Source of the DNA: Escherichia coli
GTDB taxonomy: Bacteria > Pseudomonadota > Gammaproteobacteria > Enterobacterales > Enterobacteriaceae
Assembly: GCF_048403405.1 (NCBI RefSeq)
Contig: NZ_CP183129.1
Strand: one strand, 5' to 3'
DNA length: 64,000 bases
Each line of letters begins with the position of its first letter. Position 1 is the stretch's first letter. The notes beneath the pieces were generated by a model. It was given only the letters and a program-made list of their open reading frames with translations, ran no database searches and was not told the DNA's origin. The position numbers and the translations under genes are program-made. Below are positions 2,438 through 35,794 of the stretch, in pieces.

Positions 2438-2747
2438 TTATTCCCGGTAGTTTTCCTCTGTAGGTTATCAACACATCCTGCGCCTCTAAAATTACGGGGC
2501 GCTTTTCCGGCGACTGCTCATCCCCTTCACATAACCCGGCAGCAACATCCAGGAAGACCTGTCTGATGCTCCTTCTGGCTGCTGCCTCATAAAACTCCAG
2601 CGCGGCACCTTCAACACGGTCCAGCGAGATGTCCAGGTCAAAAATTTCACCGTCAAAGCGTTTTTTGTCCCGTAACGCTAAAGTTACCGTAACTTTATTC
2701 TCAAAATTGCGGATCCCTTTCACAATCAGTTTATAGTTTTGAGTCAT
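2403..2747 (-). CDS. hypothetical 114-aa protein between holin and endolysin
   Basis: ATG 4 nt after the holin stop with GGAGAG Shine-Dalgarno; no recognisable domain. Confidence 0.55.
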   Translation of the reverse strand: MTQNYKLIVKGIRNFENKVTVTLALRDKKRFDGEIFDLDISLDRVEGAALEFYEAAARRSIRQVFLDVAAGLCEGDEQSPEKRPVILEAQDVLITYRGKLPGIITGSLKSPPKW

Positions 2748-3117: not shown

Positions 3118-4971
3118 TTATGATGATGCCGGTGCATTTATCTCCAGCACCAGACTTTCTATCTCAACGCCATACGCTGCATTTTTGGTAATATCCGTCA
3201 GCGTCAGCGCATTCAGCCCCAGTGTCAGACTGTCTTTTATGACCTGGAATGCCGGGCCAGCCACTCCATTCAGTTTCGGAGTAACCGTGGCACTGCCGGC
3301 GGTGAACACCAGCTCCAGCGTCTGCCAGTCGTTACTGTAATTCCCGAACTCGCCCAACTTTGTGTTTCCTGCTTTCTTGTGATGCATCAGATTCAGTTTG
3401 CCGTCTGTGGTCTGGGTGAAGAACGACATCAGGAACGGGTTACCAGTCCCGGTCATCGCCACGACGTCAGGTAACGCTACATCGGTATACAGATAAATTC
3501 CCAGACCGAACTGATTGTTGGTCAGTGCGCCTGACAGTCGAAACTTACAGCTCAGTCTGCCACCCCGTGTCAGCAGGGAGACTGCGTCATCCACCGGGCG
3601 CGTCAGGGACCAGGCTTTATTGCTCTGCTTGGTGATCTTAAATACACCATCTGACAACTGAATTCCGCCATTCTTAATGCTCCAGCCCTGCGCAGCAGCG
3701 TCTCCGGCTGTCGGCAACAGGGAGATTGTGCGTATGGATGCATCTTCAGACGGCCCCGATGGCGTGTCGCCGCCGGGCGAGAGTTTGATTTCCGGTGCCT
3801 TACCACTAATGAAGGCTAAGGTGCGACCGGCTACGTTCAGAATAGCAGTTGCCATACGATCGGGAATAATGCCACGACGCGCCCATGAGCTGAAATGCGT
3901 CGGGCGATTTGATGATACCCAGTTTTTGTTCGTTCGGGATGCCGAACCGTAATAACCAGACCCGACAATATCAGGATCTTCTGACGGGTTGTTTGTCGGT
4001 GTATTAACTCCGCTACCATCGGTCATAAAGGGAACAAAATAAATCTGCTGGGATTCTTTACCTTTATATGCACCATATACCACTTCATATTGCGTACCGT
4101 GTTCTTGTTTCCACGCGTATGTCGTGTCGCCACAAATCCAGGGGACTGATGCCGGACTTCCACCGTGACACTGCGCTGCCAGCCCGGCAAGGTCAGCACG
4201 GAACTGCTGTACCATTGCAAGAAATGCTGCTGGCTGCTGGGCGTAACTGGCATTCGTCATATCGAATTCCCCCTGCATCCAGCATATCGCCAGCAAAACG
4301 TTTTTCGGGTTTTTCTGCAATGCTGCCTTCGTGCGGAAAAGCAGATCCTGATATAACGGCTTACCCACTCCCCAGCGAGCCGAATCCTGACTGGCTCCCG
4401 TGGACTCGCTGAATGTCCCCTCCGTGCCCTGGGTGAATGCCGAACCACCACGACAGCATGGTACCAGCAGGATCCCCGCATTATTAGGGATATACGGAAG
4501 CAGTTTTTTGGCAATATGTAAGCCCTGTCCGACACAGCCGTACTGCCCTTTGCTCAGGTCAGCCCGGGGATGGTTAATCGTACTCATATCCTGAACATCA
4601 TGCAGACAATGGTCAGCAGGAATGATGTCGTTAAATACGCATACTTCACCACCGGGAGTCACTGTGTTACGACGGGCCAGTTGCTTAATGCGCGGATGGG
4701 GCGCATCGTATGAATCCGGAAGCGGAAGCCCTTCACCGTAAGCCATGGCATTGGATTGCCCGGCCAGTACGATGACGTAGTACCACTCCGGCTCAGTTGC
4801 ACCACTGACGACCACATCACCTTCTGCTGCAATCGCCTGCATCAGGGTATAAGGGGTTATGGCCACCGGACTACCAAACGGCTGCCAGCCCTCCTTCAGT
4901 TTTTGTGTCAGTCGTTTCGCAAGGTCTGACGGCGATGCCGCCCTGACCACGTCATAGTGTTTAAATGCCAT
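3118..4971 (-). CDS. nanS: prophage sialate O-acetylesterase (NanS-p-like, SGNH hydrolase)
   Basis: 617-aa protein with GQSN motif (VLAGQSNAMAYG) near N-terminus and long C-terminal beta-rich region; sits between the tRNA cluster and holin as in Stx phages. Confidence 0.75.
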   Translation of the reverse strand: MAFKHYDVVRAASPSDLAKRLTQKLKEGWQPFGSPVAITPYTLMQAIAAEGDVVVSGATEPEWYYVIVLAGQSNAMAYGEGLPLPDSYDAPHPRIKQLARRNTVTPGGEVCVFNDIIPADHCLHDVQDMSTINHPRADLSKGQYGCVGQGLHIAKKLLPYIPNNAGILLVPCCRGGSAFTQGTEGTFSESTGASQDSARWGVGKPLYQDLLFRTKAALQKNPKNVLLAICWMQGEFDMTNASYAQQPAAFLAMVQQFRADLAGLAAQCHGGSPASVPWICGDTTYAWKQEHGTQYEVVYGAYKGKESQQIYFVPFMTDGSGVNTPTNNPSEDPDIVGSGYYGSASRTNKNWVSSNRPTHFSSWARRGIIPDRMATAILNVAGRTLAFISGKAPEIKLSPGGDTPSGPSEDASIRTISLLPTAGDAAAQGWSIKNGGIQLSDGVFKITKQSNKAWSLTRPVDDAVSLLTRGGRLSCKFRLSGALTNNQFGLGIYLYTDVALPDVVAMTGTGNPFLMSFFTQTTDGKLNLMHHKKAGNTKLGEFGNYSNDWQTLELVFTAGSATVTPKLNGVAGPAFQVIKDSLTLGLNALTLTDITKNAAYGVEIESLVLEINAPASS

Positions 4972-19998: not shown

Positions 19999-20154
19999 AT
20001 GGATACTATCGAGCTTGGCAACAACGAATCTCTGGTGTACGGCGTGTTTCCCAACCAGGACGGCACATTCACCGCGATGACGTATACCAAAAGCAAAACG
20101 TTTAAAACCGAAAATGGTGCCCGTCGCTGGCTGGAAAGAAACTCAGGTGAGTGA
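19999..20154 (+). CDS. ydfA: YdfA-like small protein (51 aa)
   Basis: ATG with GAGG Shine-Dalgarno; MDTIELGNNESLVYGVFPNQDG... matches Qin YdfA as recalled. Confidence 0.6.
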   Translation: MDTIELGNNESLVYGVFPNQDGTFTAMTYTKSKTFKTENGARRWLERNSGE

Positions 20155-20155
20155 T

Positions 20156-20284
20156 ATGGATTTCGACACAATCATGGAAAAGGCTTACGAAGAATACTTC
20201 GATGGTCTTGCCGAAGGCGAAGAAGCTCTCAGCTTCAGTGAATTTAAACAGGCGCTTTCCAGTTCGGGAAAATCTAACGGCTGA
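20156..20284 (+). CDS. ydfB: YdfB-like small protein (42 aa)
   Basis: ATG 1 nt after ydfA stop with AGGTGAG Shine-Dalgarno. Confidence 0.55.
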   Translation: MDFDTIMEKAYEEYFDGLAEGEEALSFSEFKQALSSSGKSNG

Positions 20285-20313: not shown

Positions 20314-20532
20314 ATGCAGAAACGAGAACCCGTCATCATCGCGCCAGACTATACCGATGATGAACTTTATGAGTGGATGCGCCAGAAAATTAATGCAGTG
20401 CAGGATCTGAAATGGGCCAATGAAGCCAGGACTAAGCAGGCTGAAAATCTGTCCGCTCTGGAGCAGGATATCACCAGGCTGGAAAAAGCAGCGGCATTAA
20501 GCATTGCCAGAATGGTTACATACCCACGTTAA
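20314..20532 (+). CDS. ydfC: YdfC-like protein (72 aa)
   Basis: ORF in the dicB-operon position of ydfC. Confidence 0.55.
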   Translation: MQKREPVIIAPDYTDDELYEWMRQKINAVQDLKWANEARTKQAENLSALEQDITRLEKAAALSIARMVTYPR

Positions 20533-20554
20533 TAGCTAACCAACGAGGCTAATA

Positions 20555-20956
20555 ATGGAATTTAAAGATTTACCAATGCCATTCCAGGAAATGGCAGCGA
20601 ATGTGGTTCGCTCTCAACTGGCGACTCTTGACCTGAGTACTGTAGAAAAGGAAACCATCGATACTATATCCGGTAACGTGCGTCGTGCCTTTATAGGTCT
20701 GTATGAAGAGAAGCGCCTATTCGGCGGACAGAATTCGCCTGAAAACAAGAATCAAGCAAATGATGAGAAGCTGAAACACATTATCGCCTTACTTTTGGAA
20801 GACGCAAAACGTCTACAGCAACTGGAACCAAATGCAGGCACAGAGGCCCGCATTTGGATTGCCATGAAATCACTCAAATGTGAAAGCAGTGATTATTTCA
20901 AAACAACAATTAAAACTACTCAACTTTCGGGAGAGCTACTGAAGAAATTGCCATAA
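20555..20956 (+). CDS. hypothetical 133-aa protein, insertion between ydfC and dicF
   Basis: ATG with GAGG Shine-Dalgarno; no recognised domain. Confidence 0.5.
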   Translation: MEFKDLPMPFQEMAANVVRSQLATLDLSTVEKETIDTISGNVRRAFIGLYEEKRLFGGQNSPENKNQANDEKLKHIIALLLEDAKRLQQLEPNAGTEARIWIAMKSLKCESSDYFKTTIKTTQLSGELLKKLP

Positions 20957-21194
20957 GAGCATGGTCTTTCTCTTGTTCTGCAAGATGAGCATTAATACCT
21001 GGTATGGTTTTTTCAAATTTATCTATCTGTTGAATAACAACTTCGCGGTATACGTTTGTTTTTGTACCACCAAGCGCAGCCGTTAATGCAGAAAGCATAT
21101 TTAGTATCATATCAGTGCGATATGAAAGAATCCTGATAGCTTCATCTTGTTCTTCAATAATAGATTGCAGGGCCTCAATTTGCTTTTTATCCAT
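20916..21194 (-). CDS. hypothetical 92-aa protein antisense to the dicB operon
   Basis: ATG 21194 preceded by AGGAGG at ideal spacing; predicted helical; 3' end overlaps the 133-aa gene by 41 bp. Confidence 0.5.
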   Translation of the reverse strand: MDKKQIEALQSIIEEQDEAIRILSYRTDMILNMLSALTAALGGTKTNVYREVVIQQIDKFEKTIPGINAHLAEQEKDHALMAISSVALPKVE

Positions 21195-21529
21195 TTCACC
21201 CTCCTGAGGGTTGGTAATTAAGGAGTTCTCCACTGGTCAGGTGGAGTGCGTGCGCCGGACACGGGTGAGCATCCGGCACTGACAGTTTACTGAAAGGATA
21301 TGTCCCTGAAAAGTCAGGGCATAACGCGAAAGCGCACGGCGAAATTGGTCTCTCTGTACGGTGTCGTTAAATTTAGTTCGACCGTGCGCTTCCGGTTGTG
21401 GCACTCCGCGAAATGGCGCGGCGGTAAGTATGGCTGGGGTTTCCTCCATTGCTCCAGAAAATGCACCGGGTTGTCAGGTTGACCATACGCTTAAGTGACA
21501 ACCCCGCTACAACGCCCTCTGTTATCAAT

Positions 21530-21587
21530 TTTCTGGTGACATTTGGCGGTATCAGTTTTACTCCGTGACTGCTCTGCCGCCCTTTTT
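21530..21587 (+). ncRNA. dicF: DicF small RNA
   Basis: tttctggtgacatttggcggtatcagttttactccgtgactgctctgccgcccttttt is near-identical to K-12 DicF as recalled, including terminator hairpin. Confidence 0.85.
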
Positions 21588-21765
21588 AAAGTGAATTTTG
21601 TGATGCGGTGAATGCGGCTATGCGCACGCGGAACAGTTAAAGCAGTAAGGCGGTATTTTACGGGCGTAACGAGCATCAACTAACCCGGCGTTAATTGTTA
21701 ACTGGTTAACGTCACCTGGAGGCACCAGGCACTGCATCACAAAATTCATTGTTGAGGACGCGATA

Positions 21766-21954
21766 ATGGAAACGTTATTACCAAACGTTAATACGTCTGA
21801 AGGTTGTTTTGAAATTGGTGTCACTATCAGTAACCCTGTATTTACTGAAGATGCCATTAACAAGAGAAAACACGAACGGGAGTTATTAAATAAAATATGC
21901 ATTCTTTCAATGCTGGCCCGTTTACGTCCGATACAAAAAGGATGTGCACAATGA
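21766..21954 (+). CDS. dicB: DicB cell-division inhibitor
   Basis: 62 aa; METLLPNVNTSEGCFEIGVTISNPVFTEDAINKRK... matches DicB as recalled. Confidence 0.85.
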   Translation: METLLPNVNTSEGCFEIGVTISNPVFTEDAINKRKHERELLNKICILSMLARLRPIQKGCAQ

Positions 21955-22142
21955 ATACAGCATTTGCACTTGTTCTGACAGTTTTTCTTGTTTCCGGAGA
22001 GCCAGTTGATATTGCAGTCAGTGTTCACAGGACAATGCAGGAGTGTGTGACTGCAGCAACCGAACAGAAAATTCCCGGTAACTGTTACCCGGTCGATAAA
22101 GTTATTCACCAGGATAATAACGAAATCCCGGCAGGTCTTTAA
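21951..22142 (+). CDS. ydfD: YdfD-like small membrane protein
   Basis: 63 aa from ATG 21951 (overlaps dicB stop); N-terminal hydrophobic helix. Confidence 0.75.
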   Translation: MNTAFALVLTVFLVSGEPVDIAVSVHRTMQECVTAATEQKIPGNCYPVDKVIHQDNNEIPAGL

Positions 22143-34077: not shown

Positions 34078-34762
34078 AAATGCGCCTATAAGGCTCTCTT
34101 ACCAGCCGCGCCCTAACAGGCGCACACGATCTGACATTTGCATCCAACTTCGTTACTTACGGCCCGTAAACGGGCTGCCCGGATAGGGAATCGATAACTG
34201 CTCTCCCATTTTATCCTCTTCAAGCTGGTGCTTTATGTAATCCTGTATCTTCGCCGTGTTCTTACCCACCGTATCGACGTAGTACCCTCTGCACCAGAAC
34301 TCCCTGTTCCTGTATTTGAATTTCAAATCACCAAACTGCTCGTAAAGCATCAGACTGCTTTTCCCTTTCAGATATCCCATAAAGCCGGATACGCTCATTT
34401 TGGGCGGGATCTCCACAAGCATATGGATATGATCTGCACAGCATTCAGCTTCCAGAATCCGTACACTTTTCCACTCACACAGCTTTCTCAAAATACTGCC
34501 TATTGCTCTACGCTTCTCTCTGTAGAACACCTGTCTTCGGTATTTTGGCGCAAAAACTATGTGATATTTACAGTTCCATCGGGTGTGCGCTAAGCTCTTT
34601 TCGTTCCCCATTGGGACCCCCTTTTGATTTCTTGTTTGACACTTGCAGTTGCCAGACCGCAAGGTGTTTTAACAAATCAAAAGGGGTTTTAATAACTGGC
34701 TTAAAGCTGAAAGCTTTCCGGAACCCCCAGCCTAGCTGGGGGTTTTCTGTGCACAAAAAAGG
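34078..34762 (-). mobile_element. IS200-like insertion sequence (IS200/IS605 family), boundaries approximate
   Basis: Single Y1 transposase ORF; hairpin ccccagc-cta-gctgggg near the tnpA-upstream end; occupies a short intergenic in K-12. Confidence 0.65.
34153..34611 (-). CDS. tnpA: IS200-type TnpA (HUH/Y1 transposase)
   Basis: 152 aa from MGNEKSLAHTRW; HxH motif (ADHIHMLVEIPP) and conserved Tyr region. Confidence 0.85.
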   Translation of the reverse strand: MGNEKSLAHTRWNCKYHIVFAPKYRRQVFYREKRRAIGSILRKLCEWKSVRILEAECCADHIHMLVEIPPKMSVSGFMGYLKGKSSLMLYEQFGDLKFKYRNREFWCRGYYVDTVGKNTAKIQDYIKHQLEEDKMGEQLSIPYPGSPFTGRK

Positions 34763-34789
34763 GCTGACAACTGTCAGCCCTTATTTTGT

Positions 34790-35794
34790 TTAAAGCGGAT
34801 CGACTTTCAGGCAAGAAACGGCGTGTCTGAAACTCCCCTCCAGCACAGGACGTGTTTTGGCACACTCCGGACCGGCAATCGGACAACGGGTACGGAAAAC
34901 ACAACCGGAAGGCGGGTTGATCGGCGACGGTAATTCCCCTTCCAGTAACTGGATGGTTTTGTTCTTCTCCAGATCCGGATCAGGTATGGGAACTGCCGAC
35001 ATCAATGCCCGGGTGTAAGGATGTAGTGGATTGTGGTAGACCTCATCATAGGTCCCCAGTTCTACCGCATGGCCGAGATACATCACCAGCACACGATCGG
35101 AAATGTGTTTTACCACGGCCAGGTCGTGAGCGATAAAAATTAATGACAATCCCATCTCGCGTTGCAGCTGCTGGAGCAAGTTGACCACCTGCGCCTGAAT
35201 TGACACGTCCAGCGCCGACACCGGCTCATCACAGATAATCAGCTTCGGTTCAAGAATAAGAGCACGAGCAATCCCGATACGCTGGCACTGCCCACCAGAG
35301 AACTCATGCGGATAGCGGTTAATCAGGTTAGGCAATAACCCGACTTTCAGCATCATCGCCTTCACGCGCTCGCGAACTTCCTGGCGTGACATTTTCGGAT
35401 GATAAGTACGCAGTGGTTCAGCGATGATCTCGCCGATGGTCATACGCGGGTTAAGCGATGCCAACGGATCCTGGAAAATCATCTGAATATCACTGCGAAC
35501 GGCACGCCATTCATCGGGCTTCATGCCCAGCAACTCTTTACCTAACCAGGCAACATGACCGTCGGTCGCCTTGACCAAACCGATGATGGCGCGAGCAAAG
35601 GTGGACTTACCGCATCCCGATTCCCCTACCACACCTAATGTTTCCCCTTCATACAGACGAAGAGTGACACCATCGACGGCTTTGAGCGTTTTCGGCGGTT
35701 GCCAGAACCACTGTTTGCCATCTTTGATTTCAAAGTGCACTTTCAGATCGGCGATTTCAAGGAGGACTTTTCTTCCTTCAGTTACAGCATTCAT
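34790..35794 (-). CDS. oppF: oligopeptide ABC transporter ATPase OppF
   Basis: Walker A GESGCGKST, ABC signature LSGGQ. Confidence 0.95.
   Translation of the reverse strand: MNAVTEGRKVLLEIADLKVHFEIKDGKQWFWQPPKTLKAVDGVTLRLYEGETLGVVGESGCGKSTFARAIIGLVKATDGHVAWLGKELLGMKPDEWRAVRSDIQMIFQDPLASLNPRMTIGEIIAEPLRTYHPKMSRQEVRERVKAMMLKVGLLPNLINRYPHEFSGGQCQRIGIARALILEPKLIICDEPVSALDVSIQAQVVNLLQQLQREMGLSLIFIAHDLAVVKHISDRVLVMYLGHAVELGTYDEVYHNPLHPYTRALMSAVPIPDPDLEKNKTIQLLEGELPSPINPPSGCVFRTRCPIAGPECAKTRPVLEGSFRHAVSCLKVDPL

Follow-up and report, generated by a model that had tools for sequence, protein, structure and literature searches.

The question raised by this locus is what a pair of convergent small genes is doing between ydfC and the dicF precursor of a Qin-like dicB operon in Escherichia coli, where it could influence dicF and dicB expression or be independent cargo. 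The window analysed is a stretch of 64,000 nt of E. coli contig NZ_CP183129.1 (GCF_048403405.1), and all coordinates refer to it. An earlier note on this DNA had described the pair as extra relative to K-12 Qin, with a 133-amino-acid (aa) open reading frame (ORF) on the plus strand and a 92-aa ORF on the minus strand preceded by a near-perfect AGGAGG site, the two overlapping by 41 bp at their 3′ ends. All of this holds: both ORFs and their overlap are in the ORF list, AGGAGG stands with a 5-nt spacer to the ATG (Table 1), and K-12 lacks the pair in the alignment below. Here we call them ORF133 and ORF92. What the analysis adds is the polymorphism of the position, the nature of the plus-strand ORF as a YmfJ-type fusion, and an arrangement that mirrors N/sieB. 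On present evidence the pair is an ordinary insert, a newly found occupant of an already known kind of prophage accessory position.

Alignment against K-12 Qin, the check proposed in the earlier note, delimits the insertion. K-12 does not share a segment of 656 bp between ydfC and the dicF precursor. The junctions read ...GGCTAA/TAATGG... on the left and ...CCTCCTGAG/GGTTGG... on the right (slash, junction), and K-12 Qin fuses ...CAACAAAGCTAA straight onto GGTTAGTAATTAAGGAG... in an alignment that includes K-12 and two other E. coli prophages. The left edge falls 2 nt before the ORF133 ATG and the right edge just beyond the ORF92 Shine-Dalgarno (SD) sequence. The segment thus delimited holds two ORFs and one ribosome-binding site, and nothing promoter-like for the minus-strand gene. 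Otherwise the two prophages are alike in gene order, with ydfC, the dicF precursor, dicF and dicB near-identical, whereas the position is empty in K-12 and filled in the window. They also differ in that the window prophage has a 153-aa repressor with YdaS/YdaT, and K-12 has DicA/DicC.

The same position is filled with other genes elsewhere. Between the same flanks lies a 135-aa/77-aa pair in strain 10153, phage Evi and PPompW prophages, and a 106-aa/91-aa pair in DS566-1. In the alignment, these alleles have in common only the first ~55 codons of the plus-strand ORF and the SD and ATG of the minus-strand ORF. For a broader survey, 120 viral contigs with an exact DicF 40-mer were sorted by their content left of the conserved spacer. 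About 44 are empty as in K-12, ~10 have a 124-aa plus-strand gene alone, and ~40 carry a minus-strand gene; the 21 further contigs have other spacer types, several with still other minus-strand genes. About half of the dicF loci, K-12 among them, are without any cargo gene. The minus-strand occupants make up at least nine unrelated small-gene families, all beginning at the same SD and ATG behind a conserved structured leader. They include ORF92 (9 loci), ORF91 (10), ORF77 (6) and proteins of 69 aa (4), 64 aa (4) and 73 aa (3), besides an 84-aa protein, a 61-aa protein, a YmfI/GhoS-like protein, a Zn-ribbon protein and others. No significant family was found for the alternative cargo proteins in Pfam, NCBIfam and PADLOC; some match NCBIfam YmfI_phage below its cutoff, and another is an ECs_2282-like Zn-binding match.

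Presence or absence at a fixed site between conserved flanks, as in morons, is thus observed. Judging from these alignments, the segment is no one-off insertion; it represents one of the states of a polymorphic slot that ydfC and the dicF precursor delimit. We consider it highly probable that the slot is a polymorphic cargo position and that its two occupants here are real, separable genes.

Codon comparison shows ORF92 to be clearly under purifying selection. Its homologues are 71% identical in a Salmonella lambdoid prophage (contig L171) and 44% identical in P2/Cox-type prophages (L174-176), and the ratio of nonsynonymous to synonymous substitution rates (dN/dS) against the Salmonella and P2-like homologues is 0.245 and 0.22, respectively, or 0.23 without the overlap region. 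The range of 0.22-0.25 holds across 29-56% amino-acid divergence. The 91-aa protein of DS566-1 is a distant member of the family (28% identity). Members of this small family are found only in prophages of E. coli and Salmonella. Of 5426 complete E. coli genomes, 126 have ORF92 DNA, in each case on the chromosome and in 120 with at least 99% identity. GC content drops to 0.37 over ORF92, compared with 0.48 in ydfC and 0.53 in the spacer, and the AT skew changes sign at ~20950, where the coding strand switches; both fit a minus-strand gene. The AlphaFold2 (AF2) model is a three-helix bundle with a predicted local distance difference test score (pLDDT) of 80. The protein has no transmembrane (TM) segment, with an isoelectric point of 5.1 and a maximum 19-residue Kyte-Doolittle mean of 0.93.

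The start of ORF92 deserves comment. The minus-strand frame is open from a GTG at 21233 (105 aa), and its internal ATG gives 92 aa. The GTG-initiated 105-aa form, as well as the 117-202-aa forms of public annotations, were rejected as the real protein, as the element conserved across unrelated alleles is the SD with its ATG and as the window has a stop codon at 21237-21239. Opposite the dicF-precursor spacer, the minus strand has a 70-aa ORF (21237-21449). In other alleles this antisense ORF has no stop before the cargo ATG, producing chimeric annotations of 117-202 aa (P0133, P0134, P0141, P0142), which are probably mis-called starts.

ORF133 is composite. Both ORFs match PHROG families, and the matches to ORF133 are split between two modules. 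In HMMER searches against 1.8 billion representatives, module A (aa 1-~60) is the head of proteins of 60-208 aa with unrelated C-termini, and module B (aa 69-113) is the N-terminus (residues 2-45) of ~70 small-protein clusters with unrelated tails. This second module is the YmfJ N-domain of prophage e14; the DNA match is annotated ymfJ in MG1655, and the module has the ~40-aa helical hairpin ELKH(V/I)IALLLEDAKRLQQxEPNAGTEARI of that domain. Its differences by codon position number 996/246/2148, a pattern that indicates evolution at the protein level, and AF2 gives a helical hairpin with pLDDT > 90. MAFFT stacked the two modules on each other as if they were paralogues, a reading that hhalign does not support (probability 0.3%).

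YmfJ is a stand-alone gene, whereas its domain is internal in ORF133. The unfused arrangement is seen in contig L153, which has ydfC, a 67-aa YmfJ-like gene and ORF92, with DNA identical to the window from ~20770 on. A 7-nt difference between the two places the ancestral ATG out of frame in the window, where the module A ORF reads through. By this comparison ORF133 is a fusion derivative and not a canonical member of the YmfJ family. Its ratio of nonsynonymous to synonymous polymorphism (pN/pS) is 0.23 against an 88%-identical allele, so the fusion is maintained. ORF133 has no significant match in Pfam, NCBIfam or PADLOC, and the AF2 model of the 67-aa YmfJ-like protein has no Protein Data Bank (PDB) match with E < 2, its top hit, LUZ24 gp4, being not significant.

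The DNA coding for the YmfJ N-domain (20766-20863) is 85% identical to a Cronobacter phage (L006 3001-3096) and 79% identical to Aeromonas phage pAEv1818, with unrelated flanks in both. By these matches, it is a mosaic block of ~100 bp that recurs very widely where early-left operons begin.

The two genes come apart. In L171 and L174-176, the ORF92 homologue is convergent with the preceding gene and keeps the same 41-bp overlap. Nevertheless, in L174-176 its neighbour is an unrelated 171-aa helix-turn-helix (HTH) protein, and the only part common to both plus-strand genes is the overlapping tail (...ISEELLIQCN). Conversely, L141 has an ORF133-type gene intact to its stop codon, followed by a different 61-aa cargo and a different leader type. 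ORF92 stands beside the unfused YmfJ-like gene in L153, the 124-aa plus-strand allele has no cargo, and the YmfJ N-domain occurs next to at least four unrelated cargo families (YmfI/GhoS-like, Zn-ribbon, ORF92-type and other). On this comparison ORF133 and ORF92 are adjacent, separable units.

The DNA behind the cargo start is a second constant element. About 125 nt upstream of the start are conserved in E. coli, Salmonella and P2-like loci, and in K-12 as well. As minus-strand RNA this leader folds into three hairpins with z = -4.4, compared with z = -1.7 for the plus strand. Across 13 diverse leaders, RNAalifold finds 97% of cells paired. Hairpin 2 contains two invariant G.U pairs on the minus strand, which would be A.C mismatches on the plus strand. 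The SD (AGGAG/UGGAG) can pair with an anti-SD (CUCCU/CUCCA) in a 5-bp stem, with a compensatory change from A-U to U-A in 5 of the 13 leaders. Covariation is limited and the leaders are related in sequence; this DNA also serves as the 5′ part of the dicF precursor. These features suggest a functional leader on the cargo mRNA, with the anti-SD possibly masking translation of ORF92. A conserved structured region is also found at L002 3220-3382, L171 3357-3504 and L175 3358-3505, corresponding to 21209-21335 (minus) of the window.

Table 1. Coordinates of the convergent pair, its leader and the neighbouring genes in the window
Feature	Position	Strand	Basis or remark
Segment without counterpart in K-12 Qin, 656 bp (filled slot state)	20553-21208		Alignment with K-12, strain 10153 and DS566-1
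ORF133, 133 aa, ATG start	20555-20956	+	ORF list; in-frame fusion of four parts
ORF133 module A, aa 1-~55	20555-20719	+	Followed by linker; PHROG matches split at aa ~62/69
ORF133 YmfJ-type N-domain (module B), aa 69-113	20759-20893	+	Followed by tail, aa 114-133
3′-end overlap of ORF133 and ORF92, 41 bp	20916-20956		Same 41 bp kept at Salmonella and P2-like homologous loci
ORF92 cargo gene, 92 aa	20916-21194	-	ORF list; stop 20916-20918, ATG 21194-21192
ORF92 Shine-Dalgarno AGGAGG	21200-21205	-	5 nt before ATG; last element within cassette; kept in unrelated alleles
Anti-SD CUCCU, predicted SD partner	21221-21225	-	RNAalifold helix 4; within sequence common to K-12
Conserved structured leader	21228-21335	-	Antisense to 5′ part of dicF precursor; fold z-scores, alignment of E. 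coli, Salmonella and P2-like loci
Hairpin 3	21228-21246	-	Leader fold
Hairpin 2	21250-21279	-	Leader fold; sequence GTGTCCGGCGCAC
Hairpin 1	21304-21319	-	Leader fold
Helix 1	21324-21335	-	Leader fold
Weak candidate promoter	21284-21312	-	By eye; -35 TTTTCA (21312-21307), 17-nt spacer, -10 TAAACT (21289-21284); 8/12 consensus positions
DicA-like HTH repressor, 153 aa	19284-19745	+	ORF list, HTH annotation in identical 118UI stretch; start of immunity region
ydfA	19999-20154	+	Promoter-proximal small gene of dicB operon (ORF list, 118UI annotation)
ydfB	20156-20284	+	Promoter-proximal small gene of dicB operon (ORF list, 118UI annotation)
ydfC	20314-20532	+	Promoter-proximal small gene of dicB operon (ORF list, 118UI annotation)
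dicF small RNA	21531-21582	+	Rfam RF00039, 77 bits (gathering score 48)
dicB	21766-21954	+	ORF list, 118UI annotation
ydfD-like DUF1482 gene	21951-22142	+	ORF list, 118UI annotation

The operon around the slot is of the Qin type. In E. coli 118UI (NZ_CP032515, this allele at 1491477-1492116), a stretch 100% identical to the window locus is annotated in RefSeq as HTH repressor, DUF1391 (ydfA), ydfB, ydfC, two hypothetical proteins, dicB, DUF1482, exonuclease, xis and int. With this annotation of an identical stretch and a bona fide DicF by Rfam, the Qin-like order that the earlier note had recognised, from the DicA-like gene through ydfA, ydfB, ydfC, the pair, dicF and dicB to ydfD, is confirmed.

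Arrangements of this kind are familiar from other lambdoid prophages. In lambda, sieB (34482-35036, forward strand) adjoins N (35037-35438, complement strand), and the two are convergent. The likeness to lambda N/sieB and P22 24/sieB is that an opposite-strand gene converges with the first small gene or genes of the early-left operon, and, compared with lambda, that it lies between the immunity region and a cell-division inhibitor, kil there and dicB here. The sieB gene is expressed in the prophage, and in P22 it is controlled by antisense RNA. ORF92 differs from SieB in being a soluble protein of 92 aa without TM segments and without similarity in sequence or fold; Rac SieB, for example, has 162 aa with hydrophobic N-terminal segments. 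As a member of the SieB family, ORF92 therefore fails by homology and as a membrane protein and agrees in position, being convergent and upstream of kil/dicB. ORF92 occupies the sieB/ymfI-equivalent position, a claim about position and probable regulatory logic and not about family.

Rac has the order racR, ydaG, ydaF (a YdfA homologue), convergent sieB (4-bp overlap with ydaF) and kilR. The operon logic is the same, with a repressor, then small genes convergent with cargo, then a division inhibitor. In Rac, however, the plus-strand partner is the YdfA homologue itself, whereas the window has ydfA, ydfB and ydfC before it; dicF follows in the window, and the cargo belongs to another family. 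In e14, ymfJ comes directly after the repressor and converges with ymfI, the two sharing 63 bp; ORF133 aa 69-113 correspond to the YmfJ N-domain, and ORF133 too has a convergent overlapping partner. The window differs from e14 in that its cargo is not of the YmfI family, which occupies other alleles of the slot, and in that its YmfJ domain is fused behind another module; e14 is without dicF. A list of convergent excludons drawn from K-12 RNA-seq includes both ymfI-ymfJ and sieB-ydaF (PMC12288877), and ymfJ shows late SOS induction (PMC11002266). ORF133 and ORF92 have the convergent geometry too, and since they share 41 bp of coding sequence, any two mRNAs of theirs must overlap.

A position antisense to lytic operon genes is characteristic of prophage morons and accessory loci (PMC7067206). 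The cassette resembles morons in its presence/absence polymorphism at a fixed site, its low GC content (0.37 vs 0.48-0.53) and its orientation antisense to a lytic operon. A classical moron has its own promoter and terminator. The difference here is that the cassette holds only an SD and an ORF, with a leader apparently supplied by the conserved backbone. Papers on dicF mention non-conserved genes near dicF and do not describe the ORF133/ORF92 pair, and the moron site of Tree et al. 2014 is different from this slot. A literature search by protein accession returned no papers.

We therefore favour, with a probability of roughly 0.6, reading the segment as the filled state of a recombination-swappable moron slot within the dicB operon, the pL-like early-left operon of lambdoid prophages of the Qin/Rac/e14 type, together with the following scheme of expression. 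ORF133 would be an early-operon gene, transcribed with ydfABC-dicF-dicB once the DicA-like repressor is lifted. ORF92, a small soluble protein with three predicted helices, would be read the other way, out of the conserved structured leader with its anti-SD/SD stem. By analogy with sieB and other antisense morons, it would be expressed during lysogeny, under repression of the operon, and its mRNA would be silenced after induction by convergent, fully complementary operon transcription, as in an excludon. The protein would then act for prophage or host in conflicts between phages or in modulating the host, and not in dicF/dicB function. Of the two alternatives in the earlier note, independent cargo is the one that the comparative data bear out, the slot being polymorphic and the genes separable.

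An exclusion- or defence-type role for ORF92, drawn from the same analogy, is doubtful. We regard as unlikely the further idea that the leader, with its hairpins and SD-masking anti-SD, is a dedicated platform for interchangeable small effector genes of lambdoid prophages, where ORF92 and ~9 or more slot-mates would form a reservoir of proteins for superinfection exclusion, defence or anti-defence. In this idea, transcription of the dicB operon would decide whether they are unmasked for translation or their mRNA is destroyed.

Several results weigh against the favoured reading. A sigma-70 promoter scan requiring at least 9/12 consensus positions found no minus-strand site upstream of ORF92, and the minus strand of 21337-21620, read by eye, has no better candidate than the 8/12 site. 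Nor did the scan find a terminator for ORF92, so independent transcription, a defining feature of morons, is putative here. ORF92 resembles neither SieB nor any defence or toxin-antitoxin protein in the searches made: Pfam, NCBIfam and PADLOC gave nothing significant, the AF2 model had no PDB or BFVD match with E < 0.3, and tblastn of ORF92 against 50,697 phage records gave zero matches. The case for an exclusion-type role is positional, because the protein has no TM segment and no SieB or defence similarity. A minority of ORF92 copies are frameshifted, which would also fit gene decay in cryptic prophages. Finally, K-12 keeps the leader despite its empty slot, and the conservation may serve dicF precursor processing instead.

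That last point leads to the other alternative of the earlier note, that the minus-strand gene, whose orientation antisense to the dicB operon transcript is borne out by the geometry, influences dicF/dicB expression. Such an influence is plausible from that geometry. In its full form, the minus-strand unit would be mainly cis-regulatory, with convergent antisense transcription damping leaky read-through into toxic dicF/dicB or altering DicF processing, and with the protein secondary. The geometry fits, as overlapping ORFs force overlapping transcripts and analogous K-12 pairs are scored as excludons (PMC12288877); moreover, the conserved leader covers, on the opposite strand, precisely the 5′ part of the dicF precursor, its minus-strand fold is the better of the two, and it stays constant while cargo identity varies greatly. 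On the other hand, ORF92 and its relatives are under selection at the protein level and keep a strong SD, about half of the dicF loci, including K-12, manage dicF/dicB without a cargo gene, the scan found no promoter, and an antisense transcript would miss dicF and dicB unless it started beyond 21582. We judge a mainly cis-regulatory function quite unlikely.

The two proteins could instead form a cognate toxin-antitoxin or abortive-infection system, in which ORF92 is an effector made in the lysogen and the induced plus-strand protein neutralises it through its YmfJ domain or tail, so that lytic growth of the prophage itself is spared, in the way that Esc protects P22 from SieB. A 66-71-aa YmfJ-like gene and an ORF92 homologue do occur together, with the 41-bp overlap, from E. 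coli to Salmonella at ~70% identity; YmfJ-type genes are nearly always followed by a convergent overlapping gene, some alternative occupants (YmfI family) are annotated as GhoS-like antitoxins, and the C-termini of the plus-strand proteins change whenever the cargo changes. This covariation of tail and cargo has a trivial explanation in the physical overlap. An obligate toxin-antitoxin pair is unlikely because the genes recombine apart, as seen from the ORF133-type gene with other cargo or none, the ORF92 homologue beside the HTH protein, and the one N-domain beside at least four cargo families. The genes are also convergent, whereas a type II toxin-antitoxin pair is a co-directional bicistronic operon, and they match no toxin-antitoxin or PADLOC family, a RelB-like match (E = 0.014) falling under its cutoff. 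The ORF133 tail is modelled with pLDDT 52-68, and the evidence on its constraint is mixed: dN/dS is ~2 in the comparison with Salmonella, and the ratio among E. coli alleles is 0.31, with small counts behind both values. Altogether a cognate pair is improbable. Lastly, the ORFs could be chance or decayed frames of a cryptic prophage with no functional product: annotation never goes beyond "hypothetical protein", family, fold and promoter matches were not found, some copies are frameshifted or disrupted by insertion sequences, and ORF133 is visibly a fusion created by a small indel. This is already disfavoured and very improbable, given the dN/dS of ORF92, the pN/pS of the ORF133 fusion and the codon-position differences of the YmfJ module, as well as an SD and ATG kept across unrelated alleles, an AT skew fitting each strand, confident predicted folds, and the presence of the 135/77-aa allele in the sequenced phage Evi.

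If ORF92 is indeed a lysogen-expressed effector as in the slot reading, it would be a new small-protein family among the prophage functions that shape phage susceptibility of E. coli and Salmonella, and its slot-mates likewise. The slot could then be mined for more such genes, as it is easy to locate between ydfC or a YmfJ-type gene and the hairpins of the dicF precursor. In about half of the dicF loci, the operon transcript must cross a convergent gene before reaching dicF, and such a gene could change the leakiness or inducibility of the toxic division inhibitors DicF and DicB in pathogenic strains relative to K-12.

Some minor observations were made on transcript ends and neighbouring RNAs. 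A terminator-like hairpin with a T-run lies inside ydfC (20492-20509, minus), ~410 nt downstream of the ORF92 stop, and could end an antisense transcript, such sites being no commoner than chance in the scan. A divergent DicF-like small RNA (36 bits at E = 2e-6, under the gathering score of 48 set by Rfam) lies at 3234-3282 (minus of the locus) of the Salmonella contig L171. Its place with respect to the ORF92 homologue matches that of dicF in the window, and the genes after it are YdaE and exonuclease VIII instead of dicB. In L175, a C4 antisense RNA (RF01695, 74.6 bits) is found at 2528-2615 (minus of the locus), ~900 nt from the ORF92 homologue, in a prophage of mixed immunity with Cox/integrase (P2-like) and also an Ash-family gene.

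Among the YmfI-family occupants, that of E. coli E24377A (L170 2692-2976) is given a GhoS-like antitoxin name by PGAP, and a GhoT-like partner is not adjacent. NCBIfam YmfI_phage scores related slot occupants at 34-53 bits against a cutoff of 140. The GhoS name may be an over-annotation for these occupants. An unannotated 95-aa ORF of the same family is present in Cronobacter phage phiES15 (JQ780327; L006 3235-3522, minus), convergent with the YmfJ-type gene phiES15_010 and overlapping it by 30 bp, so the same architecture exists in a sequenced temperate phage of another genus.

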